Source: Rhodospirillales bacterium (lineage in GTDB: Bacteria; Pseudomonadota; Alphaproteobacteria; Bin95). From it: 19,408 nucleotides of DNA. Position 1 is the stretch's first letter, and each line of letters opens with the position of its first letter. The stretch spans positions 1 to 19,408 of the forward strand of contig JAYQLI010000027.1 in assembly GCA_038143065.1 (NCBI GenBank), written 5' to 3'. Positions 2,053 to 18,646 of this stretch are shown here, piece after piece. The position numbers and the translations under genes are program-made. The notes under the pieces were generated by a model, which saw only the letters and a program-made list of their open reading frames with translations, was not told the DNA's origin and did no database searches.

Positions 2053-2481
2053 TGTAACCTTTGGTTACCCCAGTTGCCACTAGCCTGGGTTATCAAAAAG
2101 GTTGGAGACATGGACAAGGATCTATTTCGCAACACGCTTGCTACGAATGCGCTGTCAACTGGCAGGCCAATAGATCCAAAAAGCCAAATCGTTTCGGCAT
2201 TTGTTCCTTCTGATCGTCCTTGCTTACATCTCTTACATTTTGGCACGAGGTTGGGTTTGGAGCTTAAGGGCACGCCATCTTGTTCTTGCATGGGTTCCGA
2301 TCATCCTCGCGGCCATGATAATCGGCGGAGAGTCGCCATAGAATTAATGCACAATACTGGACAGTTGGCTGAATCTCTACATTGCTGAATTCATCCCTTG
2401 AAACAAAAGCGGGGCACTTCTCTGGCATTTGTGTTGAAAAAGCATCACATCCCAGTGAAGGGTCTGCCGGATTAGGAACGG

Positions 2482-3630
2482 CTAGTGGTTGTAACCAATT
2501 GCTCTCATCCATCTGGCTTTGACCTCGAGACCATAGCCGCTGCCATATTTCTGGCCCACGCCTGCGGTGGCCCAACCGCCGATGGCATCGATGATCTGAC
2601 GGGCATTCAACACGAAGGCAAATCGCGGAGACTATGCCGGAAGAGTGAACCACACAGCCGCCAGGGACGCGTGGCTTCAGCCACTTGTTGATAGCCGCGC
2701 TGGCAGAGTTGGCGCTGCAGCCAGAACTGTTCGTGTATCTAGGGAAGGCGAAGTCCTGCTGGCTCTCGACAATGCGCCTTGCTGCCCAAAGTGACATGCC
2801 AACCAGTGGAATGTCACGCTCCCTTGGTCTTCAAACGCCAGGGTGTCCGACAAGGTTGATGTAAGATGTAGAATGTCGACATCAAGTTTAATGTCCGATA
2901 CCAGCAGTCCCTGCAGCTTCAGCAAGGCGCATACCTGTGTCACTGATCAGCGCCACCAGCCATCTGACATCGTCATCCAGTTCAATGCATCCTTCTGGAT
3001 GGCCACAAGGCCTCTTCGGGAATCGGCAATCGGGTAAACGTCCTCATCATCCGGGATGAAGGACGTTGGCGAACACATTGGGACAGGCGAGGCCATACTC
3101 TCTGATGGCAAGGTTGGTGATGGCTTTGACTGTGCCAAAGACACGGGCGCACTGATGCCGCCGTCATACCCTTGCCAAGCAGATAATCCCTGAACCGTCC
3201 TGCATCTGAAGCCGATAGAGATGACGGCTTTCTGCGGCGGTGGCTTCTGTCAGATAGCCAATTGCACGCTCTGCCCCTTGGAAGAAGGTCTTGCTTCGGC
3301 CAGCGCCCTTCAAACGGAGATAGCTTTCGAGCGCGTCCTCGATGGAGACAGACACGCTACATCGGTCTGCCTCAACCTCCTGCACCAATGAAAGCCAAGC
3401 TCCTTGTGTGGAAGATCTCCAGGCGGATGCTGTCCCAGTATCGCTCCAGCCTGTCAGACAGAGCGGCAGCAGATCTGCGCCTTCGGCAGCTGATCTTGTA
3501 TGCAGGAGACGATCACCCGATCCTTGTTGAAACGAGAGCGCACATCTGCAGGGACACGGCGGGAAAAGTAGAAGATGCCATTACGGCGGATTAGAAGTAT
3601 AGCGTGATTTTGGATCACAGTTTGGCTCAC
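2482..3630 (-). CDS. DUF6538-domain tyrosine recombinase/integrase (frameshifted)
   Basis: N-terminal RRNGIFYFSRRVPADVRSRF (DUF6538-like), then ALESYLRLKG, ALISDTGMRLAEAAGL (catalytic Arg), LKT, NSASAAINKWLK, VHS..HSLR and DAIGGW...KYGSGY (catalytic Tyr region). Stop TAG at 2482-2484. Confidence 0.9.
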
Positions 3631-3631
3631 A
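3609..3631. repeat. Tandem 11-bp repeat TTTGGATCACA / TTTGGCTCACA, candidate arm-type sites of the DUF6538 recombinase
   Basis: Two near-identical copies with a 12-bp period overlap the recombinase start, about 65 bp from the att core. Confidence 0.5.
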
Positions 3632-3696
3632 CTTCCTGACGTCAAACAACAAAATGCTTGAAAATCAGGGCCTTGAACCACGAATCTTTGGGTAAA

Positions 3697-3712
3697 TGGT
3701 GCCCGGGGGCGG
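3697..3712 (-). repeat. att core: duplicated 3' 16 nt of a tRNA (tRNA-Phe-like), CCGCCCCCGGGCACCA
   Basis: Reverse complement reads CCGCC-CCCGGGC-ACCA (T-stem 3' strand, acceptor strand, ACCA), matching my recollection of the alphaproteobacterial tRNA-Phe(GAA) 3' end. There is no tRNA body upstream. It lies between two integrase genes, and TGGTGCCCG recurs at 19400-19408. Confidence 0.85.
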
Positions 3713-3840
3713 CACTGAACAGATGTTTCAGTGTGTTTCGTGAGGTTTCAATAGTGCATTTTATTTGCTATTATTCAATGTGTTGATGAGGTTTTGTGTC
3801 TCAAGGCGTTTCACTGGATGTCACAAGATCTCAGATCAAA

Positions 3841-3861
3841 AGGTGGATAATTAGGTGGATA
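3841..3861 (+). repeat. Arm-type site pair AGGTGGATA x2 (left)
   Basis: AGGTGGATA at 3841-3849 and 3853-3861, immediately before the integrase start. A similar pair occurs at 19322-19343. Confidence 0.7.
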
Positions 3862-3864
3862 GAA

Positions 3865-5154
3865 TTGGCGCCTCGTGATCGCCTCTCTGCGGCATTCATT
3901 AAATCTGCAAAACCGGGCAAGCATTGTGATGGTGCTGGCCTGTGGTTCCATAAACGCGCCGGTGGCGGTGCTCAATGGTTCCTCCGTTTTGACCGATATG
4001 GCAAGCGCTGTGAGATGGGGCTTGGTGGCTTCCCCCGTGTAAGCTTGAAGCAAGCTCGTGGGCTGGCAGAGACGGCAAGATCACAGCTTGCTGCTGGCAT
4101 TGATCCCATTAAGGAGCGCCGAAGGCTAAAGCGTGAGGCGCTGCAGTCGGCTAACACGTTTGAGCATCTGGCTCATGAAGCCTTCGAGGCCCGCAAATCA
4201 GAGCTGAAGGGTGATGGCAAAAATGGTCGCTGGTTTACACCGTTGGCACTGCATGTCCTGCCAAAGCTTGGATCAGTGCCGGTAGAAGAAGATAACCCCT
4301 CGAGATCTTCGTGATTGCATCGGTCCGCTATGGCATGAGAAAGCGGATACAGCGCGCAAGGCTCTTAACAGAACAAACCTCGTCATCGGCATGCCGCAGC
4401 TCTGGGGCTTGATGTGGACATCGGCCTTGCCGAGAAGACAAAGCTGCTCTTGGGTAAGACAAGGCATGTGGTAAAGCACATTCCATCAATGCCATGGCAA
4501 GAGGCGCCAGCCTTCTATCAATCATTGGATGACAAATCCCTGCCGCAGCTGGCACTGCGATTGCTGATGCTAACCGGTCTTCGCAGCCATCCGGTGCGGC
4601 ATGCCCATCTCCATTAGATCAATGGGAACATCTGGACCATCCCCGGAGAGAAAATGAAGGGCCGCAAAGGCAAAACCTCAGACTTCCGTGTACCCCTTAC
4701 ACCCGAAGCCCTTCACGTCATTGAGCTTGCCAGTCAGCAGCAGCGGGATGGCCACATATTCCCTGGTGTAAAACGCGGGGTCATATCCGATGCCTCGATG
4801 GCGCGGCTCATGGAACGAAGAGGTCTAGAAGCAAGACCGCATGGCTTTCGCTCAACGCTGCGTGTGTGGCTGACAGAAAGCCAGCAGGCAAGCCGCGAAG
4901 TGGCTGAGACAATCATCGCGCATCAAACTGGATCGCTCACAGAACGCGCCTATAACCGCACAGACTTCCTCGAGCAAAGAAGAGAGCTGATGGAAGCTTG
5001 GGAGAGGTATCTGAAGTCAGGAGATCAGAGCCAGACCACCTATTCGATCGCTAGATCAATTATCCGCCCTCTAGGCTTCCCAATTTCGACCTTACGATCC
5101 ATAAACAACCTGAAGAACAGCGTGCATTTGATCTTATTGTGCATCGAAGGTTGA
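3865..5154 (+). CDS. P4-family tyrosine integrase with N-terminal arm-DNA-binding domain (frameshifted near 4300, 4395 and 4615)
   Basis: KPGKHCDGAGLW..QWFLRF..GKRCEMGLGGFPRVSLKQAR..GIDP (DUF4102-type arm-binding domain). Catalytic motifs LTGLRS, MKGRK, HGFRST, IAH and RAYNR. Likely start is TTG at 3865; the true C-terminus may be nearer 5030. Confidence 0.93.
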
Positions 5155-5207
5155 AGTTTTTGCCTCAATCTCAATGCCACGGCCTATAGCAAGTCTTGAG
5201 TGCTCTC

Positions 5208-5811
5208 TCACATCTCGATCGTGCGATCATAAGCCTCCACCATCCTGTCTGCTATCGCTCTCACCTCAGCAGGAGACCAACCAGACTGATATAATGTGTT
5301 TCCAAGTCCAAAACCCGTAACTCCAGCTTTGAACCATGCGTCGAATATGGCTGGTTCTACCCCACCAACAGCGTAGGTTTTCGTATTTGGCGGCAATACA
5401 GCCATCAACGCGGAAAGGCCTTCGGTCCCAAGCAGAAATGACGGGAAGATTTTAAGCCCATCCGCCCCGAAGCGAAGTGCTTTAAGCTCTCCGTCGGTGT
5501 CAGAACGCCAGGATAAGATAACAATCCGAGCTTCTTGGTTAGTCCAATGATATCAGGGTTGCAGTCAGGTGAGACAATCAGCTTAGCACCGATGTCCGAC
5601 AGCCGGTGGACGTCATCTGTTTTTAAGACTGTTCCCGCACCAATGAGCGCGTCTTCACCAAATTGGGTGCAAAGTTTTTCGATGCTGTTAAAAGGACGAG
5701 GTGAATTTAGCGGGACTTCGATCTTCGTAATCCCGGCATTAATTAGCGCATCGGCAATGCCGATCACTTCCTCGGGCTCGACACCCTTAAAATGGCAATC
5801 AACTCACGCAT
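5208..5811 (-). CDS. dgoA: 2-dehydro-3-deoxy-6-phosphogalactonate (KDPGal) aldolase
   Basis: MRELIAIL.GVEPEE..IEVPLNSPRPF, IGAGTVL, LIVSP, PGVLTPTE, AVGGV, GFGLG..LY. Its start overlaps the dgoK stop. Confidence 0.9.
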
Positions 5812-6745
5812 ACTTAACTCTCCCCAATGTCCTAGTAGCTATCTGAGCCAACCCTGCAAGTGACGCGTGCTTAGCTTGAACAACCTCAACTTTACAGCCC
5901 AATTTCTTAAGGATTTCCTCGTAGAACGTGATGGCCGCACTTCCCCAATTAGGATTACTTTCTGGTTCAACCAGTATCGTTTGATAGCCCAAGTTCCTGA
6001 CCGATCAACATTCCGGAGAAACGCGAACGCAGTTTTTCTGGAGGAGCATCATCCAGAAGCGACGCTGCTCGTAGCCCAAAAGTCCTTCCGCGACGCTTTG
6101 GGGTTCCTTAGCCGCCTGAAGCGCAGCTGACAAAAGAACACTTCGGTCCCACGCCCGGCTACCCATAGAGTGTCGCAAAATTGTATGGTTGGACAGAGCG
6201 TTAAACACCTCTCCAGTCATGAAAGTCGTAAAAACTTTCGACTTTTCCATTCGAGACAGATACCCATTTCGAATGCGTTCCCGGAAGACAAATTGCGCCG
6301 GAATAGTCGGGGTCACGAGCCATAAACCCGGCGATCTGAGTTTCTTCACCGCGCATAACATCCATTGGGGCCAATTGACTTAATCCCGGGAGAATATGAA
6401 CACTGATGCGATTGTCCCTGGTTGGCACGTGCGCGTCAATCCATCGGTAGCGACTGGTTCACATGGGACGCGGCGATATTCGGCTTCGCGCCATCCTTGT
6501 TTTGCGCCGACCATTCCGCTGGCATAGACCGGTATCTTGCGGTTTGGTGAAAGCCACGGTTCGATCAAGGACAACGGAAGGCAGACTCGAACTGATGAGA
6601 CTCTAGTTTTGCCATCCCAAGATCCGACGATTTCTCGTCAATAGTCTGTCCTGTTGCGTCAGCAGCAAAGACACGCAAATTTGTCGTACCCCAGTCAACT
6701 CCCTATCCAAGCTAAGTCGGTACTAGGCTTTAAACTCTCAGCCAA
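5804..6745 (-). CDS. dgoK: 2-dehydro-3-deoxygalactonokinase
   Basis: WIGVDWGTTNLRV, ASGMVGAKQGWREAEY..VP, DVMRGEETQIAG, CLPGTHSKWV and FMTGEVF..L..HTIL, rebuilt across frames. Confidence 0.92.
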
Positions 6746-7083
6746 TTTTCCAAACCTTTCTAGGGTATTTCACCCCGTTCCATTAACGTACTCCGCAGAT
6801 AGGTTACTAATGGAGCCTCAATACTTTCGGCTAGTTCAAGGAATTAGAAATCTTGCTCGTGTGGAGCAGCAAACGGGTCAATAGGCATATAGGCCATTAT
6901 AAAATCTGCGCCATAATTGCTGGCTCTTTTGCTGCATTCAATAGCGTCCTTGAGTGACCCAACTACCGCCATCATCATCGCTGATCGTTTAGCGTTGGCT
7001 TCCAGCAGCTATTGAATGAATGCGGTCAATATCAGACATCTGCATTGAGAAGAATTCAGCGCTGCACCCAGACGCATCTGACC

Positions 7084-7968
7084 CTATTTTCGGCTGTCGC
7101 GAATTTCCCGTTTGTCCAAAAACAGCTGCATCTCTTTAAGATCATAATCATCCAAGCTTGCAGAGTAATCTCTGACATTTGGCGTGCGAATGACACCCGC
7201 GAGGTGCAGGAACGTTTTACCAGCCACGGGACCGTAGAGCATCATGATGTTGATCATCGGCAATGTGGATTCATACAGGCGTCTCGCACCTGCAATGTCT
7301 CCTTGCCAGAATCGGTTGTAGATTTGAACGATCTCCGCAGTCAATGGAGTTGCGGGCATCGTGCCAGAGCTTCCACGCAGCAGTTCTGAAATGAGGTACA
7401 TTCCGCTTTTCCACCATAAACAGGAGATTGATTGCTTTAGTGAGCTCAAGCGTTTTGCCGATGGTGTGCGTGTCTGGATGCAATTCTTGTTTGATGGAAA
7501 ACACAAACCTATTCGTTTCAAGTATTTCAATCATTGCCGCATCCGAAATGCTCCCTCCAGTCGGTGGTGGCGCATTTTGAATCATAAGTGGCAACTGGCT
7601 CGCATCCGTTATCTCATTAAAATAGCGGATGGCTTCCTCGTCGTTTGCAATTGTTGGCGGAGTGGCGATTAGTCCGTCAACACCTGCCTTCGTTGCCATT
7701 TCAGCCAAGCGCGCCGCGTGAACGATTGAAACGCCTGACACGCCAGCAAGGACTTTCACCCGTCCCGCTACAGCCCCAACGGTAGTTTGGTAAATAGCGT
7801 CCCGCTCAAAGTCAGTTAACGTGTAATATTCACTGATAACCAGTGGTGTTGCGATGGCTTTCTGCCCAGCCTCGATGCAATATCTAACCATGAAAGTCCA
7901 TCCAAATCTAATATGTTGTCGTCCCCAAAAGGCGACATAAGAATTGGGATAACACCTTTGATGTCCAT
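7084..7968 (-). CDS. Dihydrodipicolinate synthase (DapA/NAL)-family lyase, probably a keto-deoxy sugar-acid aldolase or dehydratase
   Basis: MDIKGVIPILMSPF..LDLDGL, SEYYTLTDFER, AGRVKVLAGVS, ATPP, MIQNAP and SIKQE (Schiff-base Lys). RBS AAGGGA lies before ATG 7968. Confidence 0.88.
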
Positions 7969-7993
7969 TATTGTTCCCTTCATTAATTTAGTA

Positions 7994-9332
7994 TCAAAAC
8001 CGATCCAAACCTGGTTTGTAACGGCCCGGCGCGATCTCGCAAGACTAGAAAACTTCAGGCAGAAGCCATGGATCTTGCCGCAAGATCCGTCTGGCCAGTT
8101 CCGCTCAGCCTCAATCTTTAGCCACGTTGCATACTCGGTTCGCACATCATTTGTGCCAGTGTAGCGACCACAGGGCTTTGATCTTCACAGTGCGTATATT
8201 GAAGATGATGAATATCTTGTATAGGGGCACCAAAAATATTTAGCTTTCTTCAGGATCTATCCGTAAATCGTAAAGCTTGTGGCGCCTCATCCGCACTTAA
8301 TATGAGTTTGTGCGAATGTGTGCGCACACACCTTTGGATCGTGCGTGTTTTATTGGCCTCTGTCTGCCAGTAAAGGTGTGCGACCCTCGACTGAGGCGTT
8401 CGTGCTGCAAAGGCAGCAAACTCTGTCCTTCAGGGTTTGCGGGCATTTCGCTGATCAGGTCGTAGATTGTCGGCACGATATCTTCATACTCATAATGTCA
8501 TGCTTTACTTTTGTTATAACGCAATTCCGCCTTTAAAATCATGCGGCACACGGATGGAATCTTCTTACAGCTGAATTTGTGTGAAAGTTTGGCGTTTCAT
8601 CGAAGGTTTCGCCGTGATCAGACAGGTAGATCAGGATTGTATTTTTCCTGAAAGTTGATCGCACGATCAAACTTGCCGAATGCGCCCGACGTATGAATCC
8701 AGCGTTGTCACTGCTGCATAATACCCAGGGTTCACTACGCCTTTACCGCGATAGTGCTCGTAAAACTCAGTTGGAGCAGTAAATGGATTATGCGGAGGGT
8801 ACAGTTTTGGACCGCAAAAAAGGGGTTTTCCTGGAGCGACATTGCTTTCTAGGAATGCGATCATTTTGTCCGTTTGTGTTTCAGGCTTGTATTTGCCCTC
8901 TTGAAAGGGCTTGGCGCCCCTCCTCCCAATGGCCGCCTCGGGAATTGAAACCTTCCCAAATGTCAAACCGACCCGAGTTTTTTTCGTTGAGGTGCCATTT
9001 GCCAAAATACGCTGTGGTATATCCAAATTCTTGAAGGGCTTCAAATATTGTGGTTTTTACTTTGCGCCCTCGTAATTGAAAACATCATCGATGCCGTAGC
9101 GGTTATATGTTATTCCATGCGTGCTAGGGGCGAGGCCGGTCCACAACGTCGCGCGCGCCGGTGTGCAGACGGGATAAGGGGTGTAGGCGTTTCAAACGAA
9201 GCGCCATTGTTAGCCATCGTTCATCGAGATTGGGCGTATGCACAAAACAATTGCCATTTGCACCAATAGAATCCCACCTTTGCTGATCACTCACAATTAA
9301 TACGATGTTGGACACACTTCTGCACTTTTCAT
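7994..9332 (-). CDS. Cys-type (formylglycine-dependent) sulfatase-family hydrolase without signal peptide
   Basis: NIVLIVSDQQRWD..HTPNLD, signature VCTPARATLWTG (CxPxR, ~9135-9170), PPHNPF, YYAAVTTLDSYVGRI, N.ILIYLSDHGETF and C-terminal LYDL..DPEE..N. Confidence 0.9.
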
Positions 9333-9335
9333 TCC

Positions 9336-10566
9336 TTACTTGGGACTTGACTGAGCCACGAATTTCGGTGTTCAGCGGAATTCCGAGCAGCCAGAGGGTG
9401 CCAAAGCCACATGCGAGAAAATGCTCGAGCCAACTCCTAAAGGCCCTCCAGCCGCTGATATCGGCCCACGCCAAGGCGTGAGCGACTGTTTTATTCGTTG
9501 GCCAGTTCAACCATTGCTTGAAACGATATACAGGCACTTCACGGAATTCCGCGAAGATCTGAGTGAAGTTTCGGTAGAATTAAACGCGGGCGGTTCTGCA
9601 ACGGTTGCACGATATTCAGTCAGATATGCATCGCTTTTCACGGTCGCTTGATAAGCATCCTGCAAGAACGAATGCTTGGATCCATTCCAGGAGCACCCAT
9701 TACCACAATGGTCGCAGCCATCACCTTTGAGCGAAACCAGACATAGGCATCCCACCATTTGCCGGATGGCTCGGTGCCATAAAGCGCTTTGTGTGCCTCA
9801 AAGATATTTGGAACATCATCAGGGGAATGCCTTTCATTCGACTCTACGATATTGCCTGACGCGTCAAAGTGCGGGTGGTAGCATATTGGGTAAGTTGTTT
9901 TGCCATCGCCAAAGAATTTTTGGTATCCCGTTATACCCGCGTATCCGGTTAATTTCTCCCCATCATCGAGGCGGAGATTTTAGAGAACCCCTTAAAACCA
10001 GGAATGTAGCGGTAATTCGCACCGATAACTTTTAGGCCAAGGCTGCCCATCATGCCCACTATCGTTGCAGCAACGCGACCACCTACAACAATTGCGTCGC
10101 CTTCGACAACGTCCTTCAGGTCGTCAATCTCATCTCCGTCGTGCAACAAACGCCAGATCAGAACCTGCTGAGCCAATCACACCCATCTTTTTCTGGAACA
10201 AAGCGGATGCCAGGTGCGTTTGCGATTACGTGCCGAGGCATTAAAGGAACCGCAATAAAGGGAGTGCTCCCATCTGATTGACTGCTTTGTCGTACGCATG
10301 GTTCAATGCGGTTGTACCGCCGCCGCCGCCTTTGTTAATACCGGATCAGTCGGCGCGCCAGGGAGTATTTTGCCGAAAGTGTCGCGCGAAGACGCGTCCG
10401 TGAACATCACCACCGCTGCTGCCGCAGGGTTTCCAGCTGTAAAAATCGCGATCGGTTTTGCCGGTGAAATCTGCGGCAACAACTGGCGCAGCGGCCATAA
10501 TCAGGGACGCCAATAATCTAGGGGCGCAGCAATATCCTGCCACGGTTTTGAAAGTCTAAACTTCAT
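9336..10566 (-). CDS. tctC: Tripartite tricarboxylate transporter substrate-binding protein (TctC/Bug family)
   Basis: AAGGAGG RBS and ATG at 10566, signal-like region then AADFTGKTI, G.DVHGRVFARHF..LPGAPT and YRYIPGFKG. It lies directly downstream of the TctA-family gene. End is approximate. Confidence 0.75.
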
Positions 10567-10583
10567 TTACTACCTCCTTGGTT

Positions 10584-12690
10584 TTAGAACATCAGCCATA
10601 CCGGAAACCAATCCGGTGCGACTGACTTGACGAATTCAACGATTGGGGTGGTTTGCCCACAGGATGTGAACGACGCGGTCGCAGAAGGCGATGAGAGACC
10701 AACCAACACGCACCGGCGTAAAGATGCAGACTGTCTGCCGCTGTAGTCCCCAGTTCTTCAGGTGTACGCAAAGATAAACAACGGGATCGCAAGTTTCTGA
10801 CCAATCACCAGTGCGAGCAGAATGGTCGCGCATGAGATAGGCGGAAAGAAGACTGTGTAGGCTGCTGACGATTGAATCTCGAACACTCGCCGGAAAACTC
10901 GTTCAGAAGACCGTTTTGGTTGTCGCGTTAGGTTCGACTCTCGCACCAATGCCGATAAGCGCAGAGTAAGATGCCTGGCACCGCCCCAATCATCGGAGAA
11001 TGAGATTACCTGCCGATTGCGGCCATGCCGGCCTGCGTAGATGGCAACGACGAAGACTGCCTTCGTACGAGCAATAGAACGGACACGATAGATCGATAAC
11101 GATAGATCTGTTCGCTCGTCTTCAGCTTCGTCCAGATTTTTCATCGGTCTTGTTTGGCCTCTTCGCATTGGATTGTTGCTTAAGCTGTCCACGCAGGGAG
11201 TAGAACAGCGTTAACACAACAATACTCAGCAAGATCGACGATCCGGGCGACCGAGCCACGATGGAATCTTGATGGATCATCGTGCTCAGCATGAAAGCTG
11301 TTTTCCATCGAACTGCCCAAGATCAGAAGGCGAGGATCGCCGGCGGCCGAGGCCACCCCCTTTGCATGCATCAGATAGCCGATGATCGAAAACACCAACA
11401 ACGTCACCCAGTCCCCCAAATCTGCACTTGCGGACCAGGAGCCACATCAGGATGAACAGCATTGCACCCGGCACGATCAGATGACCCATGAGATAAAAGC
11501 TAGTTTGGAGATCCAGTTGCTCCCAGCATATGTTATCACAGCTGCACCACATTTAGCTACAGCTATATTCAGACCATCGAAAAACGTAATTTCGAGATTT
11601 GTGGTCAGCATGGATTTTCCTGGCTGCAGACCTTGTATGAGAAGCGCCGACAAAAGGAGCGTTCATCGCACTGCCAGGCACGCCAAATATGACAGTTGGG
11701 ACTGGAAGAACCGCCGCGCACAGCGTTGTTAGCCGCTTCGGGCGCAATCACGCCTCGAATATCACCCTTGCCAAAGGTCTGTTGTTTTTTGACGATTTGA
11801 TAGTGTGACCATAGGCAATCCATCAACCACCGCCCTGCCTAGACCCGGAATCATGCCGACGTAGACCCTGATGGCAGAGCAGCGCACGACCAGCCACCAA
11901 TTTTTAAATGCGTCTCGAATGCCTTGTAGTGAGAAGGTATTGCCACCGGTGTCCGCGAAACTTTCGCGATGGAGCGGTTTTTTGATCGCAAGATCCGACG
12001 CCACTGGGAACTGCAAATATCCCACAAGACCACAGGAACCAGCGGCAGTTTATCCAGCAATAATTGAACGCCCATCCGGGCACGAGGGATGGGTTCCGGA
12101 CCATCTCGCGTAGCCGATGGAGGATATCAAAAGACCAAAGCAGGCTGCGATCAAACCTTTGAGCAATGGTGTTCCAGCCGAGGGATAAGCCATCACAAGT
12201 CCGGTTAGGCCCAGCATGAACAATTCCGGATTATTAAAATTTGAGGTATGATTGGAAGCGCCAGTGGCAAGTAGAGACCGGCAGCATTATGGCCCCGATA
12301 GTGCCGCCGATCGCGCGTTACAGTAAACGCCGGCGCCAAAAGCACGCCTGGCTTGCCCCACGCGCGCCAAAGAGGATGCCCGTCGAGCACGGTCGCCTGA
12401 GACGCTGAGGTCCCGGACATTACCAACACCGAAGGAATTGTATCTGAGGTCGCCGTAACGGCGTATATGCCCAGGGAGAAGCGCAATCGCCTGCGCCGGT
12501 TCCATGCCATAAGTAAATGGTAATGACCAGACCATTACATCACCTAGAGCCACCAAGATCCTGGGACCGCCCCCAACCAAAGCCCAGCCAGGATGGCCAA
12601 TCGGCAAAAATGCAAACGCCGGCCATTGAAAGACCGAGCAGCGCGCTTGGATCAATCCTGCGTTTATTTTACTCAATCCGCTAGATCGAA
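10584..12690 (-). CDS. tctA: Tripartite tricarboxylate transporter permease TctA, apparently fused to a C-terminal TctB-like domain
   Basis: GAVPG, TSDTIPSVL...GTSASQATVLDGHP, G(M)IPGLG..VVD, FGKGDIRGVIAPEAANNA, PTVIFGVPGS and ILGSSMENSF, followed by a further hydrophobic ~200 codons ending PDWFPVWLMF*. Start is approximate. Confidence 0.88.
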
Positions 12691-12811
12691 CGAATATCGA
12701 TGATTGCATTTTTCTGTGCAACGCTAAACCGAAAGTAGCGTCGTTCGGATGTGCAGCTCTGGATTTACTTGCATAAGGCCGACGATGTGCGTTTTTAGTC
12801 TTCGGCGGTGA

Positions 12812-14042
12812 CTAGCGGTTATTTGGCCCTGCCCCCGGATATCCAAACAAATCAATTGTCGCGTCATTGGTTCCAACATAGCGCTCGGTAGAAATTGCAG
12901 TTTGATTTAGATCCGCTCCCCATCCCAGCACGCGTCGTTCAACTTTCAAAACCACCACCGCTGGGATGAAACAAAGGTACAGAGAGCAATTCTAGCTGCA
13001 TGCGGTTATGCTCTTTGTATTGCTCTTTCCGATGATTGTCGTCGTTTCAACCACCGCCGCAACAGTTTGCGAGATCACGTCTAAAACCGAGTTCCACGCA
13101 GGTTGTTGCAACGAGAACTCTAGATTCGAACGTCGACAAATATTTTGAAATCCTCACTGCTTCCCGCACGCCAGAGCAGAGACGAATGTCGGGCAAGTAA
13201 ACGTCGTGCATCGTCAGCTTTTACCATCGCAATCACATCCGACAAACTGGTGACATGTTCCGCTCCTGCAACTCTTAATCTCCGTGGTCGTTCGCAAAAG
13301 ATCTAATCTTTGGCGATATCATCAGAGGCATTTGATTTTTTCGCGAATGGGGACTTCCAATCCGTGGTAACGCCGATTTGCGGCCTCAAGTTCACGAAAA
13401 ATTCGGCGTGCGCCAAGGAGATTTAAGCGTCCGTGCAAGTCGACATTGATCAGCATGCCAGATCCGACTACCTGCGTCTCTCACGGCGTGAACACAGGCA
13501 AACCCATGATCCACTTTTTACCGCCTTCGATTTCTTGTAACGCGGCAGCATCCACGCCATCAAAGGGTTGCTATTTTTACCCGACGTATCCGTCCCTTTT
13601 CGCCTCAAGTGCTCGTTGCCGCCCAGCTCCTCTGGCGATCGATCTACAGTTCCGCGATTGATATTGGCGTAAATCGCAATTTCAGTGCGCTTTTGGCCGC
13701 CAATAAGTTCCATAGGAGAAAGGCCCAAAGACTTAGCCTGAAGATCAATTAAAGCTTGTTCGATACCGCTCACGAGAACCCGAGGCACCTCGGCAGCTAA
13801 GCGGCGTTGACATGCTGTCGTAGCTCATCGTCAGCGAGACCGAGACCCATTAAAGGTTTGAGTCATACCCGGCAGCATTTGCCAAACGCCCGCGCTCGAC
13901 CCCGAAATGAGAAACTTCGCACTGAGACGAATCCGATACTTCCATCTTCCGGCTATAACCTCCAGAAACAGCCAAGAGGTTTTGGGAGAAATCGGACACT
14001 CCATATCGTCCGGAAGTTTGACAAGCTACATGTCGTTAGCAT
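12812..14042 (-). CDS. Mandelate racemase/muconate-lactonizing (enolase superfamily) enzyme, galactonate dehydratase-like
   Basis: ISPKTSWLFLEV, SGIEQALIDLQAKSLG...LIGG, IYANINRG, KIA(P)FDG, INVDLHGR, AGAEH, LPDIR and C-terminal GWGADL. Confidence 0.8.
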
Positions 14043-14093
14043 GCTGTAGTATCGGGACTCGAACTTGTGTGTTTCCTATCTTTTTGGATGATC

Positions 14094-14106
14094 ATCGATT
14101 ATCGAT
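14094..14106. promoter_or_regulatory. Palindrome ATCGAT-T-ATCGAT in the divergent intergenic region, possible operator
   Basis: Perfect 6-bp inverted repeat about 50 bp upstream of the dehydratase start, between the catabolic operon and the LacI-family gene. Function is inferred only. Confidence 0.25.
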
Positions 14107-14317
14107 CGTGCCAAAGATATTGCAACTACAGCCTTGCGCTCTTTATGTGATGCCAGGAGCTACTTGCCGGCTAGGCGAATGTCGGAACCGGATCTCAAAG
14201 CGCAAAAAATAATTGCCAATCTCAGCACACACTGGATACTCTGCGTGACTTCAGCGATATCAGTAGAGAGAACCTCCGTGGGCGTTGAGCTAGGACACCC
14301 ACCAATTGAGTGCAGGC

Positions 14318-15330
14318 GTGCAAGCCAAAAAACCTGTGAATTGGCCGATTGATGTCGCTGCCGCCTCGGGCATACGCTCAGTGCGACGGTCTGGCGAGCG
14401 CTCAACAAACCAGACCTTGTCTCAAAGGAAACTGTTAAAAATTCTAAGAAGTTATCCGGCAGATCGGGTACTTCCCAGATGTGACAGCTCGATCATTGAG
14501 GACAGAAAAACAAAGCGGTCTAACATTGCTTTGGTTGTGCCATCGATCGATAAGGGCTTCGCCCCTTTGGTTCAGAGCATCAGCGAAACGGCCGAAAAAC
14601 TTGGGTTTGAAATCATCATTGGCATCTCAAACTGATCGATGCAGCTGGAATACAAAATCGTTACACGTCTGTTGGGGCGTCAAGGATTTCGGCGTTGATT
14701 CTTAGTGGCAACGACCAATCCTGAAAACAAAATCAGTTTGTAAGTCCGCTGGAACTACGGTTGTTCGATCTCTGGGTGCCGACGGCTCGCCGATCCAGAT
14801 CGATGATCGGCTTTCAATGTTGCACTTGGCGAAAGTGCAGCAAATCGTTTGCTTGCCAAATCGCGCACAAACTTGCTGATCGTGCTCAACACCAGTCACT
14901 CACGCGCGAAAGCTTTCTGATCGGCAGGCTTTCGTCGGGCGATAGCCGTGCAGCGACCGCAAATATTGGAATTGAGCACTATTCGATTTAGGCGAACCTT
15001 GAAGCCGAACTGAACGAGTTCTTAAAAAAATCAACATTGATCAATGGCATCTCATGTTCAATGCTTCGAGAGATCTGTTTCCCATTATCGAGAGCTGGCC
15101 GGGCTTCAAAACCGCGTTATACCTGACGACGTATCGGTCGCAGACATTCGGCGAACCGTCCCGGCAAACACCTTTTGGACAAAGGAATGGAGTTTATCAA
15201 AATTCCTGACCGAGAAATTGGTGAGGCTGCGGCGCTGCTGGTCGAACAGATGTTGACAAGAGAAGACATACCAGCGTCAGTCAATGACATGGGATTTGAA
15301 ATCAGCGGAAATCAGAGACGATGGGCGTAC
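14318..15330 (+). CDS. LacI-family transcriptional regulator (frameshifted)
   Basis: KKPV...DVAAASG..., RALNKPDLVSKET (HTH region), SNIALVVPSI...FAPLVQSISETAEKLGFEIII, VIPDDVSV and IKIPDREIGEAAA.LL. Divergent from the catabolic operon; end is approximate. Confidence 0.85.
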
Positions 15331-15590
15331 TGTTGCTTCCAACTGGTACTGGCCGCGGTTGGCGGTGATGGCGCTGCTGTGAAGTGGATATCAACGCCAA
15401 CCCGGCTGCGAAGCGACCATTCGTCGGCGATCTGCTGAGCAGACAGAAGGGCGCCAGAAATGCGTGTCTCGGTGATGCTCTCCCTGGCCTTTGCTGGTGA
15501 CAAAGCACCGAGTTTCGCGGCTCGCGGACCGCAGGACTTGCCTATGCACCCAGGTTCAGCGTGCCTCGAAGCACCACCAATTTGCGGTAT

Positions 15591-15618
15591 AATAACACCC
15601 CGCGAGCGGGGTGTTATT
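15591..15618. promoter_or_regulatory. Perfect 13-bp inverted repeat AATAACACCCCGC-ga-GCGGGGTGTTATT over the promoter/RBS of the HGGxSTG gene
   Basis: Read directly. It overlaps TATAAT (15588-15593) and ends 1 nt before ATG 15620. Confidence 0.7.
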
Positions 15619-15619
15619 C

Positions 15620-15967
15620 ATGCTGACAAAAGACAACGTGACTATCGGTATAGAGTGGCGTTTCGGGCCGGACTGGCCGGGGCAGCGATGTGGTGCGAAG
15701 ACACGGCGGGGCACCGCGTCAGTGTCCTGCCAACAAGAAGAATGGCCGGTGCCGACTACATGGCGGGGCCAGCACTGGCGCGAAGACCGAAGAGGGACTG
15801 AGCGCGGATCTCTGCGGCGAACCTTCGTCATGGGAAGTTCACCAAGGACAAGCTTGAGAAGCGGCGTGAGAATGCGCTGCCAAGGGACGGAGATACGTAA
15901 GGAGCTTCGCCAGATGGAGCGCGAGTTGATCGCTGGCGGGCTTCTCGACAAAGCACTGGCGGGATAG
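15620..15967 (+). CDS. HGGxSTG domain-containing protein (frameshifted)
   Basis: MLTKDNVTIGIEWRFGPDWPGQRCGAKTRRGT, then in a shifted frame QCPANKKNGRCRLHGGASTGAKTEEG, ISAANLRHGKFTK and ...IRKELRQMERELIAGGLL. Confidence 0.88.
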   Translation: MLTKDNVTIGIEWRFGPDWPGQRCGAKTRRGTASVSCQQEEWPVPTTWRGQHWREDRRGTERGSLRRTFVMGSSPRTSLRSGVRMRCQGTEIRKELRQMERELIAGGLLDKALAG

Positions 15968-16051
15968 CTTCCGTCGTAGTCATCCAGTTTGGGGCGGTTC
16001 TCAGGCCGAGAACGGGTTAGCTTTTTGCTCGTCGGTATTGTCACTGGGCGA

Positions 16052-16140
16052 TGTAGGAATGTAGGAGTTGTTTGATAAATCTCATTACTAGTTATTCCAG
16101 CTAACTATAAGTTGAGAGACTTACCCTTTACATTCCTACA
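16052..16140. other. Putative replication origin: nested inverted repeats around an AT-rich core
   Basis: TGTAGGAATGTA (16052-16063) pairs with TACATTCCTACA (16129-16140). Inner pairs are TCTCA/TGAGA and TAGTTA/TAACTA. It overlaps the primase-helicase stop codon. Confidence 0.6.
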
Positions 16141-18375
16141 CCAAAGAGCGGCGTCTTACAGCGTTACCGTCACTAAGCCTGACTAATTCAAAGTCTGGAT
16201 CGTTCTTTAAATTGGCAATGGAGCGTCTCCACAAATCGCCGATGGCTGGCATAAATGTACCATTTGCCAAGTCGCTGACATCTTCTTTGAAGTAGACGTA
16301 CAGTAATTCTACAGAATGGGCGCTTTGTTGATATGACGCTCAAGGCCACCATCTTCTAACCATCCAAGCACAAGATCAGCATCATGGAACCACTGTGTGG
16401 TAGTTTCTTCGACGGTCTCTGGAATACCGAAATAACCACGCTTGATGACTTCGCAGAGTTGTATGATGGCTAGAGCAATCACTTGGTTTGTTTGCTGAGT
16501 AGCTACCGTTCTACCTATCCCAACAACCCGCTCAGTTTTTCGGTATCGTTGTATCAAATGGAATGACGGATAAACGCCTCTCAACGCTGTAATCAACGCC
16601 ACCTTGGAAGCTTGGTAGGCTATTTGTTGCAAAAATATTGATTGCTTGTGGCCGGAACGGCACTGGCGGCTGGTAGACTATTTTACCGTTGAGCATATCA
16701 CCCGTTACGACCTGCTTCATTTTGTCTGAAGCGATAGCCCTTGATGAAGATAACTCGTCTGGAGGTTTGTTGCCTTGCCAATTAGGTTGGCAATGAACTG
16801 TTCTTTGCCAAAATCACTGGCACGCATGAAATAGACGTCTCTGGCAGGAGATAACGGATTAAATCCAAGATCTGGGATTTGCCATTTGCCGCCGTCGGCC
16901 CATAAAACACGAAAGCTTTTGGCTCTGCGATTGAGGTTGCCATTGATGCACAAGCAACACCAATAATCTGGAAAATTAAACACTTTATTTTTCCGCTTCA
17001 TCGCTCGTACCAAAGCAACCGTCCAATAGTTTTTTAGCAAGCCGTCTATGGCGTATGTTTGCTTTTCATCCCATGTGGCATCAATTGTGTGGCGCCTTGC
17101 AGAGATGGATTGTGCGCCACCAGCTTTTTTGCCCAGTATTGCTTATGCCAAGAAAGCCGTTACGCAAATTAACGCCAATAGAAGGCTGCAAAAAAAACCG
17201 GTATTTTCGCACATGCTATGAAGCTCGTTTAAGACGCCGTCTATAAAAGACTTGCTGGCAGCAAGGCGCTTTTTTCCCACTGAACGCCGTCTAGATCCTG
17301 CACTAAACGCCGTTGCTCACCACCACTGGAAGGGTAACCAGTGCGTGTCTCCATAAAAACCCAAAGTCGCCCTTCATCAAAAATTGGCTTGGGCTTGTCG
17401 ACGCATAGCAATCGGAGAACATGCCGGGCGACAGAAGTATGGCTATCAACGCCAGCAAACAACCCGCTGGCACCTGTCCAGCCTTGGTCAGACGCTCTAC
17501 TGAAGATTGCATTTATGCTCGTTCTGTCTGGTTTAAATTTCGCAAATTGCCCTGCAACATCTTCAGGACTGACGTAGTTGGCCGGGATTGAGCCATCTGG
17601 TCTTTTTTTAGACCAATCTTGAAAACCGATAAGGCGTCCGCCCTGCCTGAGGACTTGAGCATAGCCTACGGCAATCCAATTGTCATAATCCTGTGGATCG
17701 AGATGGTTCAGCGCGTCAGTGACCCAATCGCAGTTAGCTGAGGCACCTGTATAGACATCGCTGGTTTGGGATTAAGCTGATCTTGTCTGGAAGCTGGCCA
17801 TTGCCAAACTTAGCGGATAGACGAGCTTCAAAAACATCCCTTAGAGCCGATATCTGGTCAGGTGTTACTACAGTAAGCCCATTTAAAGGGACATCAAGCA
17901 GGCTCTCATCCACCCAGTAATATGGGGTTTGAGTGTCGGGGTGAACGCCAAACACAACACTTTGTTGCCCGGCCCCAAGAATTTCGACCTGGATACTCTT
18001 AGCGCCATCTATGTGCGCAGTGGTCATCTGCTTGACCAATTGGCCAGATTCAAGCTTGTAGAACAGTGATCGTTTTGGTGTGTTGCCGAAGCGAATTGGC
18101 GCATGACCAAGAGTTGAGAGACATAAATTTTCGAAGTCGTCTACAAGCTCGTAATCGGGAATGTCGAGATCCACGACAACCAACTCACCTGCCTTCACTC
18201 CCACACCGTATTTTGGAAAACTTGATGCATAATTGCTAACTACGCTCGTTTCCAAAAATTAGTTTCTGTCCATTTTTCGATCGCTGGGCGTTTTGTTCCA
18301 GGAACAATCGGGATGGCTTCATATCCGTTCTCGAGCAATAGGTGCGGCTTTGCCGTAATACAGGCTCTTATTCAT
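16136..18375 (-). CDS. Primase-helicase: Prim-Pol N-terminus + PriCT-2 + D5-like SF3 helicase (frameshifted)
   Basis: LLENGYEAIPIVPGTKRPAIEKW, GVGV..GELVVVDLD, VEILGAGQQSVVFGVHPDTQTPYYW. PriCT-2-like ALNHLDPQDYDNWIAVGYA..FQDWS. Walker A YGPTAANGKS, then KQVVTGD and IFATNSLP..RRLSVIPF. Confidence 0.9.
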
Positions 18376-18569
18376 CGCCAGCGCCTTGAGTTTGCTCCGT
18401 TTGGCGAGCAGACCTAAGCGATTTTACCCATTGTTGGATATGGTCCCGCCCAGCCAATGGCTCGCTTGCCGAGCTTCACAGGTTTTGAAAGCTTCCAGAC
18501 CAGCAGTCGATAGATCGAGGCACGACTGACCCCCAGCTCACTGCAAACGTCTTTCATGCGTAAAATCAT
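18368..18569 (-). CDS. alpA: AlpA-family regulator / excisionase (not in the ORF track; frameshifted)
   Basis: GGAGG RBS, then MILRMKDVCSELGVSRASIYRL...KPVKLGKRAIGW...IQQWV. Its stop overlaps the primase start. Confidence 0.88.
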
Positions 18570-18646
18570 TTTGCCTCCGGCGATTTCAGATGATCGCTGA
18601 AGGTCGCAAAATGTTCACAACCGGCATGCCGCCTGATTATGGGCAA

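Follow-up and report, generated by a model that had tools for sequence, protein, structure and literature searches.

A LacI-flanked operon on a P4-like island of a Rhodospirillales bacterium combines a cytoplasmic sulfatase with a carboxylate-type importer and may serve sulfated hexonate catabolism

The gene cluster and the origin of its frame breaks

The window (the whole 19,408-nt stretch analysed) carries a co-oriented run of genes for an enolase-superfamily dehydratase-like enzyme, a long TctA permease, a periplasmic binding protein, a sulfatase, a DHDPS-like protein, DgoK and DgoA (Table 1). The cluster, from a marine bacterium, is the cargo of a P4-like integrative island, with a P4-type integrase on one side and an AlpA/primase pair on the other. 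Within the host's family, 36 further genomes were searched and it was found in none of them.

Table 1. Features of the operon and its island backbone in the window
Feature	Coordinates	Strand	Evidence
P4-type tyrosine integrase, island backbone	3790..5151	+	Pfam Arm-DNA-bind_3 + Phage_integrase; PHROG integrase; frame-broken
2-dehydro-3-deoxy-6-phosphogalactonate aldolase DgoA	5208..5811	-	NCBIfam NF006600 254.3 bits (cut-off 207); Pfam Aldolase
2-keto-3-deoxygalactonate kinase DgoK	5804..6773	-	Pfam DGOK 309.7 bits, profile positions 1-281
DHDPS/NAL-family protein	7084..7983	-	Pfam DHDPS 107 bits; below all NCBIfam cut-offs
Cytoplasmic S1 (formylglycine-type) sulfatase	8055..9325	-	Pfam Sulfatase 164 bits; CTPAR
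11-bp GC-rich hairpin directly past binding-protein gene	9461..9485		L086:6013-6039
Periplasmic binding protein, very divergent TctC/Bug relative	9491..10565	-	Weak PDB matches
Long TctA permease	10584..12667	-	Pfam TctA 411.9 bits
Enolase-superfamily (MR_MLE) acid-sugar dehydratase-like enzyme	12812..14063	-	Pfam MR_MLE_N + MR_MLE_C
Imperfect 22-nt palindrome, candidate LacI operator	14112..14136		L086:1482-1503, 79% self-complementary
LacI-family regulator, divergent from operon	14318..15315	+	Pfam LacI + Peripla_BP_1/3/4
AlpA-like regulator (18417-18614) and large Prim-Pol/PriCT_2/DUF5906 primase, island backbone	16535..18614	-	Pfam; PHROG DNA primase; both frame-broken

All genes in the window are broken, and every ORF is shorter than 250 aa; the original prediction had understated this damage. 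An intact copy was found on L086, a marine metagenome contig of 10.6 kb in which all 8 genes are open. L086 is 92.5% identical to window positions 15495-4904; their alignment contains 404 substitutions (transitions:transversions, 224:180) and 250 indel events. The length of 230 of the 250 indels was not a multiple of 3, and only 45 lay in homopolymers of 3 or more. The gene coordinates in the window were mapped from L086, and the gene content, order, strands and positions first predicted proved right. When the stop-to-stop frames of the window itself were searched with Pfam, the same run appeared as successive fragments of Aldolase, DGOK, DHDPS, Sulfatase, TctA and MR_MLE_N.

Metagenome contigs from four of four runs, each from an independent study, span 5083-15398 and showed gaps of the same kind against the window; one example of 7417 nt had 333 other letters and 360 gaps. 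Because of these contigs and the intact L086 copy, the frame breaks are long-read sequencing errors and not gene decay, and the window is an error-ridden copy of an operon whose genes are intact in nature. A decayed, pseudogenised island, as the breakage of every gene might suggest, is highly improbable, since L086 is intact, the four metagenome assemblies agree with one another against the window, the error pattern and the step in indel density from 6-7 to 20-38 per kb at ~7.9 kb fit sequencing error, and the assembly has further small contigs that are ORF-poor while its 2.86-Mb contig is normal.

The encoded proteins and the promoter region

The intact sulfatase, P0001, has 421 aa. In a frameshift-aware alignment the window sulfatase was 87% identical to it over 409 codons, with 17 frameshifts and at least one stop, and retained CTPAR. 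The residues C53, T54, P55, R57, K108, H110, D234, H235 and K248 were invariant in all 22 clade members. The sulfatase domain begins at residue 4-5 and the protein therefore has no signal peptide; a leader sequence was absent from every one of the 22 members as well. The prediction of an S1 formylglycine-type sulfatase without export signal was borne out. Two contigs of this assembly, C44 and C46, carry intact FGE genes. The AF2 model of the sulfatase (pLDDT 89.9) had S1_16, S1_19 and GAG sulfatases as its nearest folds (TM 0.75-0.79).

Tripartite tricarboxylate transporters (TctCBA, Bug proteins) constitute TC 2.A.80. The system encoded here shares with them the TctA domain and a binding protein for which no relatives other than TctC/Bug structures were detected, but it has a two-gene form. 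The intact TctA has 678 aa, with the TctA domain at residues 20-439 followed by a charged loop and a tail of at least four hydrophobic segments, including the stretches 514-532, 542-560 and 590-619. No TctB match was obtained for this tail in the Pfam search; in place of a separate TctB, it is presumed to be a fused TctB equivalent. Among the best 120 TctA homologues listed, nearly all had 659-695 aa (one was a 532-aa fragment), and those with names came from marine Alphaproteobacteria. The intact binding protein (356 aa) has a hydrophobic N-terminal leader and lies below Pfam detection of TctC, with no NCBIfam match and no Pfam match even at E<10. A phmmer search against the PDB matched 4x9t at 2.4e-5, and with a 3-sequence profile all 10 of 10 PDB matches were TctC/Bug/TBP structures (best 1.5e-7). 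The predicted tctC is thus backed by PDB matches that are weak but all of this family, while Pfam does not recognize it.

The intact dehydratase (400 aa) had been taken for DgoD, an assignment that does not hold because it scored 121.9 bits against the DgoD equivalog NF010624, with a cut-off of 311. Its best PDB matches were only 2qq6 (2e-20) and 3rr1 (6e-18). In all 17 subfamily members D203, H205, E229, E260, D283 and H310 were invariant, and so were Y128, N130, N132, R138, K159, R191 and R285. The enzyme represents a new enolase-superfamily subfamily with a complete DgoD-type catalytic set.

DgoK (321 aa intact; five DGOK fragments in the window's own frames) and DgoA (201 aa intact) are bona fide, as originally assigned. 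The intact DHDPS-like protein has 303 aa. Compared with DapA structures, it keeps the Schiff-base Lys but has Gln for the tyrosine of YN(V)P and V-I-S-E for G-T-T-G-E, and its active site is thus atypical. Dehydrogenase, lactonase and glycoside hydrolase domains, also predicted to be missing, were not matched by Pfam anywhere in the window, where broken frames lower sensitivity.

Among NCBIfam models, the intact LacI-family regulator (325 aa, L086:331-1308(-)) was closest to GntR, the gluconate repressor of Pseudomonas type (155 bits, below cut-off), and next to IdnR; its nearest named families are sugar-acid repressors. A promoter-like TTGCAA-16-GATAAT lies upstream of the dehydratase gene (L086:1490-1517). 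The palindrome overlaps its -35 element and might be a LacI operator.

Conservation of the gene neighbourhood

In all four contigs with a sulfatase of at least 52% identity (L086, L087, L088 and L089), an MR_MLE gene and a long TctA gene adjoin the sulfatase gene, and a TctC-like protein was found in three of the four. L087 also encodes SulP+STAS (SulP sulfate permease) and an aldehyde dehydrogenase. The Trueperaceae locus L006 contains a LacI regulator, MR_MLE enzyme, transporter, sulfatase, KDPG aldolase, PfkB kinase and aldehyde dehydrogenase. In Oceaniglobus trochenteri, the homologues of the sulfatase, dehydratase and long TctA (WP_226781378, WP_226781380 and WP_226781381) lie on one 336,485-nt contig and, from this and the order of their accessions, are probably clustered.

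Of the predicted sulfatase-TTT-dgoKA co-occurrence, the linkage of sulfatase, enolase-superfamily enzyme and long TctA recurred in all the close contigs, whereas DgoK and DgoA were beside the sulfatase only in the lineage of L086 and the window, L087-L089 being cut by contig ends. In the wider clade the sulfatase mostly had other neighbours: in 16 annotated loci with a 45-50% identical sulfatase, mostly ABC transporter genes (12 loci) and other enzymes were found, with MR_MLE in only 2 and TctA in 1. Identity among the L086, L087 and L088 dehydratases is as low as 30-35%, and L086 and L087 encode unrelated DHDPS-like proteins; therefore, the linked clusters may differ in substrate.

The proposed pathway and its alternatives

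We propose a LacI-controlled catabolic operon through which a sulfated hexonate would be imported, desulfated in the cytoplasm and cleaved via 2-keto-3-deoxygalactonate, a reading to which we give an even chance. The two-gene TTT system, with its divergent TctC-like protein and the small-subunit tail fused to the long TctA, would import a small, galactonate-like hexonate carrying a sulfate ester. The formylglycine-dependent S1 sulfatase would then strip the sulfate, the new dehydratase would form a 2-keto-3-deoxy acid, DgoK would phosphorylate this acid, and DgoA would split the product into pyruvate and glyceraldehyde 3-phosphate. We infer that the substrate is a sulfated, galactonate-type acid and that desulfation precedes dehydration; the part assigned to the DHDPS-like protein is likewise inferential. 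The substrate might conceivably be galactonate sulfate from algal galactans, on which a non-degrader could cross-feed; the papers searched documented no natural source of a sulfated aldonate, and no description of such a system was found.

The De Ley-Doudoroff pathway of D-galactonate is encoded in E. coli by dgoR-dgoK-dgoA-dgoD-dgoT. Both systems have DgoK, DgoA and a dedicated repressor, and the dehydratase here has the same metal ligands and acid/base residues, yet is no DgoD equivalog. A TTT system takes the place of the MFS transporter DgoT, the regulator is of LacI type and not GntR type as DgoR, and the cytoplasmic sulfatase and DHDPS-like gene are additional.

It is rather unlikely that the operon has two functions, in which the MR_MLE enzyme, DgoK and DgoA would catabolise an unsulfated algal sugar acid supplied by the TTT system while the sulfatase acts, upstream or in parallel, on another sulfated compound. 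The acid could be D-galactonate or, by analogy with the DauB/DauC/DauD carrageenan branch, 3,6-anhydro-D-galactonate. The model here is carrageenan catabolism in Zobellia galactanivorans, where Ficko-Blean in 2017 reportedly described a DauA-D branch with S1 sulfatases. Like that system, the operon brings sulfatase, enolase-superfamily, KDGal kinase and KDPGal aldolase genes together, in keeping with the dauBCD logic; the nearest sulfatase folds include the carrageenan sulfatases S1_16 and S1_19, and L006 encodes an aldehyde dehydrogenase, the activity expected of DauA. However, the Zobellia sulfatases are said to act on oligosaccharides outside the cytoplasm, in a PUL with glycoside hydrolases and SusCD, whereas the window has a signal-less sulfatase and a carboxylate-type importer, with neither hydrolase nor dehydrogenase. 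A cytoplasmic sulfatase requires an imported substrate, the TTT system is the operon's only transporter, and the sulfatase gene keeps to the MR_MLE and long TctA genes in all four close relatives. Moreover, the DauB structure has reportedly been solved, and no PDB match of the dehydratase at E<=1e-6 was named anhydrogalactonate cycloisomerase.

A reversed order of steps is unlikely. The dehydratase and the DHDPS-like enzyme would use the still-sulfated acid, and the sulfatase would act later, on the keto-deoxy acid or a small sulfated product of cleavage. Such a route would resemble sulfoquinovose breakdown by the sulfo-Entner-Doudoroff pathway, which has a C-S sulfonate substrate and no sulfatase; the common logic is dehydration of a sulfur-bearing hexonate followed by aldolase cleavage, but a sulfate-ester hydrolase is present here. 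The additional invariant basic or polar dehydratase residues (R138, K159, R191, R285, N130 and N132), the score far below DgoD, the atypical DHDPS-like protein and the aldehyde dehydrogenases of L087 and L006 are consistent with it. On the other hand, the scheme is conjectural, DgoK requires a free hydroxyl for phosphorylation, and the loci do not share a conserved DHDPS-like protein.

S1 sulfatases and phosphonate monoester hydrolases have common catalytic residues, and the hydrolysed ester is therefore not fixed by sequence alone. Given the promiscuity of the alkaline-phosphatase superfamily, the ester that the protein cleaves in the imported acid could be a phosphonate, a phosphate or of another type, and weaker matches to the phosphonate monoester hydrolases 2vqr (4e-23) and 2w8s (3e-21), to PehA (123.5 bits, cut-off 900) and to Pfam Phosphodiest point this way. 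This is improbable, as the top matches by sequence and fold are all sulfatases, the closest solved relatives being carbohydrate sulfatases, with phosphonate monoester hydrolases ranking far lower. The SulP permease of L087 also argues for a sulfatase, as do the further sulfatases and an FGE found alongside TTT genes at other places in this assembly.

The operon has a partial counterpart in the flexible islands of SAR11, where a TRAP (DctPQM) operon has two neighbouring sulfatases, the role of which its authors left open (PMC11796062). Both place a binding-protein-dependent secondary carboxylate importer beside sulfatases in marine Alphaproteobacteria, but the SAR11 operon has another transporter family and other partner enzymes, with no dgoK, dgoA or enolase-superfamily gene described in the relevant passage (PMC11796062). 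The cluster points to an undescribed route for consuming small sulfated acids.

The intact operon copy and the broken frames of the window

The window, a contig of 19,408 nt, is one of 52 contigs in an assembly of 4.63 Mb. A frame scan of the window showed no open frame of 250 aa or longer. Long-frame density was normal on the 2.86-Mb contig of the assembly, and many of its small contigs were poor in long frames. Searching stop-to-stop frames on the minus strand of the window gave Pfam fragments of MR_MLE_N, TctA, Sulfatase, DHDPS, DGOK and KDPG aldolase, in this order. When P0001, a 421-aa metagenomic sulfatase, was aligned to window 8058-9321 in a frameshift-aware manner, 356 identities over 409 codons were obtained, at the cost of 17 frameshifts and at least one stop. 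Used as the query against metagenome contigs, P0001 led to L086, a marine contig of 10,604 nt, which encodes the protein exactly and on which all eight genes of the operon are open.

In its alignment to window 15495-4904, L086 was 92.5% identical; there were 404 mismatches (transitions to transversions 224:180) and 401 gap letters. The gaps formed 250 indel events, 170 with extra and 80 with missing letters in the window; 230 of the 250 were not a multiple of three and 45 lay inside homopolymers of three or more. Indel density rose from 6-7 per kb at 5-8 kb to 20-38 per kb at 8-15.5 kb, an approximately five-fold step near window 7.9 kb, and on the high-coordinate side of this step it looks as if the consensus rests on fewer reads. 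Part of the stretch was present in 20 of the 24 listed public runs, from nine studies. Contigs from four runs of four studies covered window 5083-15398 and disagreed with the window as L086 does; one of 7417 nt, spanning window 7830-15398, had 333 other letters and 360 gaps. Window 648-1941 had little or no cover in the four metagenome runs. Because of the indel pattern against L086 and the disagreement of the metagenome contigs from four studies, we attributed the broken frames to errors in a long-read consensus of low coverage and not to pseudogenisation. Genes were read from L086, and window coordinates were transferred through the alignment of the two. L086 proteins were also the queries of the locus comparison; tblastn of locus ORFs against the error-rich window was too insensitive.

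Sulfatase, importer and sugar-acid enzymes

The L086 sulfatase matched PF00884 with 164 bits, its domain starting directly at the N-terminus. The C-T-P-A-R maturation motif, which follows the C/S-x-P-x-R pattern, was legible even in the window by frameshift-aware alignment. C53, T54, P55 and R57 were invariant in all 22 clade members, as were D13, K108, H110, D234, H235 and K248, residues that are assigned catalytic (metal- or sulfate-binding) roles. No leader was present in any of the 22. The original reading of the gene as a sulfatase with CTPAR and without signal peptide was upheld. A model built by AF2 from the 22 sequences (pLDDT 89.9, pTM 0.91) was compared with Foldseek, and at least the top 30 matches were all S1 sulfatases (TM 0.70-0.79). 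The nearest folds (TM 0.75-0.79, identity 21-26%) belonged to the same families as the sequence matches. Among solved proteins, the best sequence matches were carbohydrate sulfatases, namely the GlcNAc-6-sulfatase 5g2v (1.9e-39), the S1_25 module 6hr5, S1_19 carrageenan sulfatases and the S1_16 kappa-carrageenan sulfatase 9fo1, which aligned with residues 6-365. Phosphonate monoester hydrolases matched far lower (4e-23 and 3e-21). The ranking of sequence and fold matches argues against a phosphonate or phosphodiester hydrolase, the identity named beforehand as refuting the pathway. The protein appears to be an S1 formylglycine-type sulfatase, and a phospho(n)ate ester as its true substrate would also be compatible with the sequence.

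The sulfatase matched 1650 proteins at E<=1e-30 when 1.84 billion library representatives were searched. Only five full-length matches scored more than 320 bits (42-49% identity) and the next scored 272 or less, indicating that the clade is small and separate. Clusters obtained from the ESM Atlas were all generic ("enolase C-terminal domain" and "sulfatase"). The formylglycine maturation that such an enzyme was said to need has a counterpart in the same assembly: genes for formylglycine-generating enzyme (FGE; PF03781, 253 bits) were intact on contigs C44 and C46 and fragmentary on C35, and none lay inside the operon.

By its large permease, the importer is a probable tripartite tricarboxylate transporter (TTT). 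This TctA (678 aa) matched PF01970 with 411.9 bits over profile positions 3-423, the domain ending at residue 439. The remaining 239 aa form a charged loop followed by at least four hydrophobic segments. The operon has no separate TctB gene, and PF07331 did not match this tail even at E<10. Among the best 120 TctA homologues listed, nearly all were 659-695 aa long (one was a 532-aa fragment), and the organisms named were marine Alphaproteobacteria. The 356-aa binding protein carries a hydrophobic leader and had no match in Pfam, TctC included, or in NCBIfam. Its PDB matches were weak (2.4e-5 as a single sequence, 1.5e-7 with a three-sequence profile), and ten of the ten obtained with the profile were TctC/Bug/TBP proteins. 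The AF2 model from the three-sequence alignment was poor (pLDDT 44).

At least one further cluster of TTT and sulfatase genes is present in the assembly, with the order MarR, sulfatase (483 aa), TctC, TctB, TctA, Usp, sulfatase (508 aa), FGE and sulfatase (536 aa). Its TctC is Pfam-positive. All three sulfatase domains begin within the first 14 residues, so these enzymes also look leaderless. C44 and C46 gave identical or near-identical scores for the FGE, sulfatase and TctA gene series in opposite orientation, as if one region were present twice; such a duplication may lie behind part of the 5.5% "contamination" figure of the assembly.

Positions of selected features in the window, on the metagenome contig L086 and in the host assembly G000 (C35, C44 and C46 are its contigs)
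Feature	Coordinates	Strand	Length	Remark
DUF6538 fragment	window 3457-3747	-		Pfam; oppositely oriented, a short way upstream of the P4-type integrase
P4-type integrase	window 3790-5151	+		Arm-DNA-binding domain
DHDPS-family protein	window 7084-7983 = L086:7513-8424		303 aa	PF00701, 107 bits
Host dgoK-dgoA	G000:C35:1538852-1542152			directly beside another DHDPS-like gene
Second TTT-sulfatase cluster (L135)	G000:C44:5000-23000			duplicated on C46

The divergent LacI-family regulator (325 aa) had sugar-acid repressors as its nearest NCBIfam models, all below cut-off. DgoK matched PF05035 over its full length (309.7 bits, profile positions 1-281) and DgoA scored 254.3 bits against NF006600, above the curated cut-off of 207, which bears out the earlier assignment of both genes. 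The DHDPS-family protein keeps the Schiff-base lysine; a Gln is aligned at the catalytic tyrosine of YN(V)P, and VISE stands in place of GTTGE. The host chromosome carries a dgoK-dgoA pair of its own.

The dehydratase (400 aa) contains both MR_MLE_N and MR_MLE_C. Its score against the DgoD equivalog NF010624 was 121.9 bits, below the cut-off of 311, and it is not classed as DgoD. The best solved relatives were 2qq6 (2e-20) and the putative DgoD 3rr1 (6e-18). D203, H205, E229, E260, D283 and H310 were invariant in all 17 subfamily members and aligned to matching positions of 3rr1; their counterparts in DgoD are the three carboxylate metal ligands and the His/Asp acid-base residues. Because these residues are invariant while the DgoD score lies far below cut-off, the dehydratase is, as judged from its sequence, a carrier of the full DgoD-type catalytic set and yet a separate, uncharacterised subfamily. 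It is predicted to act like an acid-sugar dehydratase outside the DgoD equivalog. Y128, N130, N132, R138, K159, R191 and R285 were likewise invariant in the 17, and the extra basic residues among them would also fit an enzyme binding a sulfated acid. An MR_MLE paralogue of the island dehydratase was not detectable elsewhere in the host genome.

Conservation and mobility of the gene combination

Loci holding sulfatase relatives were divided by sulfatase identity into a set at 52% or more and a set at 45-50%. The first consists of L086, L087, L088 and L089, all metagenome contigs, and in all four the sulfatase is flanked by MR_MLE and TctA genes. A divergent TctC-like protein was found in three of them, L089 being too short on that side. 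L087 has in addition a second sulfatase, a SulP/STAS sulfate permease, a LysR gene, a weak DHDPS-like gene and an aldehyde dehydrogenase. In the second set, 16 loci were annotated (L006-L009, L011, L012, L014-L016, L028, L090, L092 and L131-L134) and six more were checked by tblastn only. Among the 16, MR_MLE was present in two, TctA in one, an ABC transporter in 12 and further sulfatases in eight. Of the combination named in the original prediction (sulfatase, TTT and dgoKA), the sulfatase and TctA occur together in 4/4 loci at 52% identity or more and in 1/16 at 45-50%, and DgoK and DgoA were seen beside the sulfatase only in the lineage of L086 and the window. The closest in logic among the 16 is L006 from Trueperaceae, with the order LacI, MR_MLE, ABC transporter, sulfatase, KDPG aldolase, PfkB kinase and aldehyde dehydrogenase.

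In five loci of roseobacter-type and related bacteria (L131, L132, L133, L012 and L015), the 45-49% identical sulfatase lies inside a different conserved block. It comprises an FCD-type GntR regulator, an Opp/Dpp-type ABC transporter, two more leaderless-looking sulfatases, an M81 (MlrC-like) peptidase and an AstE/AspA-type deacylase. With this composition, the imported substrate might be a sulfated compound of peptide-like or amino type.

Homologues were also found in Oceaniglobus trochenteri: TctA (65%, WP_226781378), the sulfatase (about 60%, WP_226781380) and MR_MLE (45%, WP_226781381). Since the accessions are near-consecutive and all three are recorded on one contig of 336,485 nt, adjacency of the genes is suggested. 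TctA and MR_MLE homologues on contigs of equal size (6764, 288370 and 20696 nt), and TctA and sulfatase homologues likewise (47647 and 7148 nt), give a hint only. The MR_MLE proteins of L086, L087 and L088 are collinear with 30-35% identity, and L086 and L087 have unrelated DHDPS-like proteins; a single substrate common to the linked clusters is therefore disfavoured.

The operon is bounded by the integrase and a primase, each with its 3′ end towards it. On the primase side, DUF5906, PriCT_2, Prim-Pol and AlpA were detected on the minus strand of the window (Pfam; PHROG). With a tyrosine integrase, AlpA and a primase, the element is a candidate P4-like integrative island, for which a tRNA target and flanking direct repeats would also be expected. 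DUF6538, present as a fragment next to the integrase, is an N-terminal domain that belongs to a different type of integrase. Searches of the window for tRNA and tmRNA genes and for Rfam families gave no match, and no att-like direct repeats or terminal repeats were found on the contig. By blastn the cluster was not detected in any of 40 relatives, no match exceeding 150 nt. Protein searches recovered the sulfatase from none of the 36 further genomes in the host's family and from four of 401 genomes sampled in the family to which Primorskyibacter belongs.

Read depth differed along the window. In three metagenome runs, regions 1-647, 1942-5176 and 14882-16175 had a summed depth of about 70-575; in the fourth, X2, it was 8-89. 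The depth of the operon was about 6, and that of the operon plus primase region about 1-33 in the four runs. The high depth of the flanks and the low depth of the operon indicate that the backbone also occurs in other, commoner sequences and that the operon is rarer cargo. Homology of L086 to the window ends at 15495 and is followed, after 87 nt, by an 82-nt integrase piece (window 4858-4777) on the L086:1-169 side. Because this is the LacI-side flank, L086 has integrase sequence on both sides of the cargo, which is compatible with cargo exchange by recombination between related islands.

A candidate route for sulfated sugar acids

It is genomic context on which the reading of the operon as a sulfated-acid route is built. 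Given DgoK and DgoA, carbon would exit as 2-keto-3-deoxygalactonate. The enolase-superfamily enzyme calls for a precursor acid whose alpha-proton can be abstracted and which has a leaving group at the beta position, the TTT system would let it enter as a carboxylate, and the leaderless sulfatase implies that the sulfate ester would be hydrolysed inside the cell. In the simplest chain, a sulfated galactonate-type hexonate would be imported, then desulfated, dehydrated and phosphorylated, and finally split by aldol cleavage to pyruvate and glyceraldehyde 3-phosphate; dehydration may also precede desulfation. A more specific proposal is a "sulfo-De Ley-Doudoroff" route, carried by a family of modules of marine Alphaproteobacteria that would be traded through integrase-borne islands, in which the acid enters through the long-TctA TTT importer, the MR_MLE subfamily with its extra invariant basic residues works on the still-sulfated acid and the compact cytoplasmic S1 sulfatase removes the ester afterwards. 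We consider this version rather unlikely; if it were true, sulfated acids of low molecular weight would, more broadly, form a hidden pool in sea water.

In its working, the operon resembles the De Ley-Doudoroff galactonate pathway, but it differs in its non-DgoD dehydratase, its two-gene TTT importer and its cytoplasmic sulfatase. In its logic it is also similar to carrageenan catabolism by DauBCD plus sulfatases, but is without any extracellular machinery. Work on bacterial sulfatases has mostly dealt with secreted or periplasmic forms, which strip polysaccharides ahead of uptake. Our literature search found no publication on this gene combination or on sulfated aldonates, and the passages checked that name a sulfatase and a tripartite tricarboxylate transporter do not link the two. 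A study of SAR202 describes enolase-superfamily enzymes and sulfatases as expanded in parallel and draws no shared pathway. Passages of the SAR11 pangenome paper place two sulfatases beside a TRAP operon and leave their role unexplained (PMC11796062).

If the sulfated-acid reading is true, a cytoplasmic sulfatase would be coupled to a carboxylate importer and sugar-acid enzymes, adding a substrate class for TTT systems and a new function to the enolase superfamily. The module is probably present in the cultured strain O. trochenteri, which makes the idea testable. On the same condition, some marine bacteria would import small sulfated acids whole, and bacteria other than the polymer degraders would gain access to the carbon and sulfur of sulfated glycans made by algae or animals.
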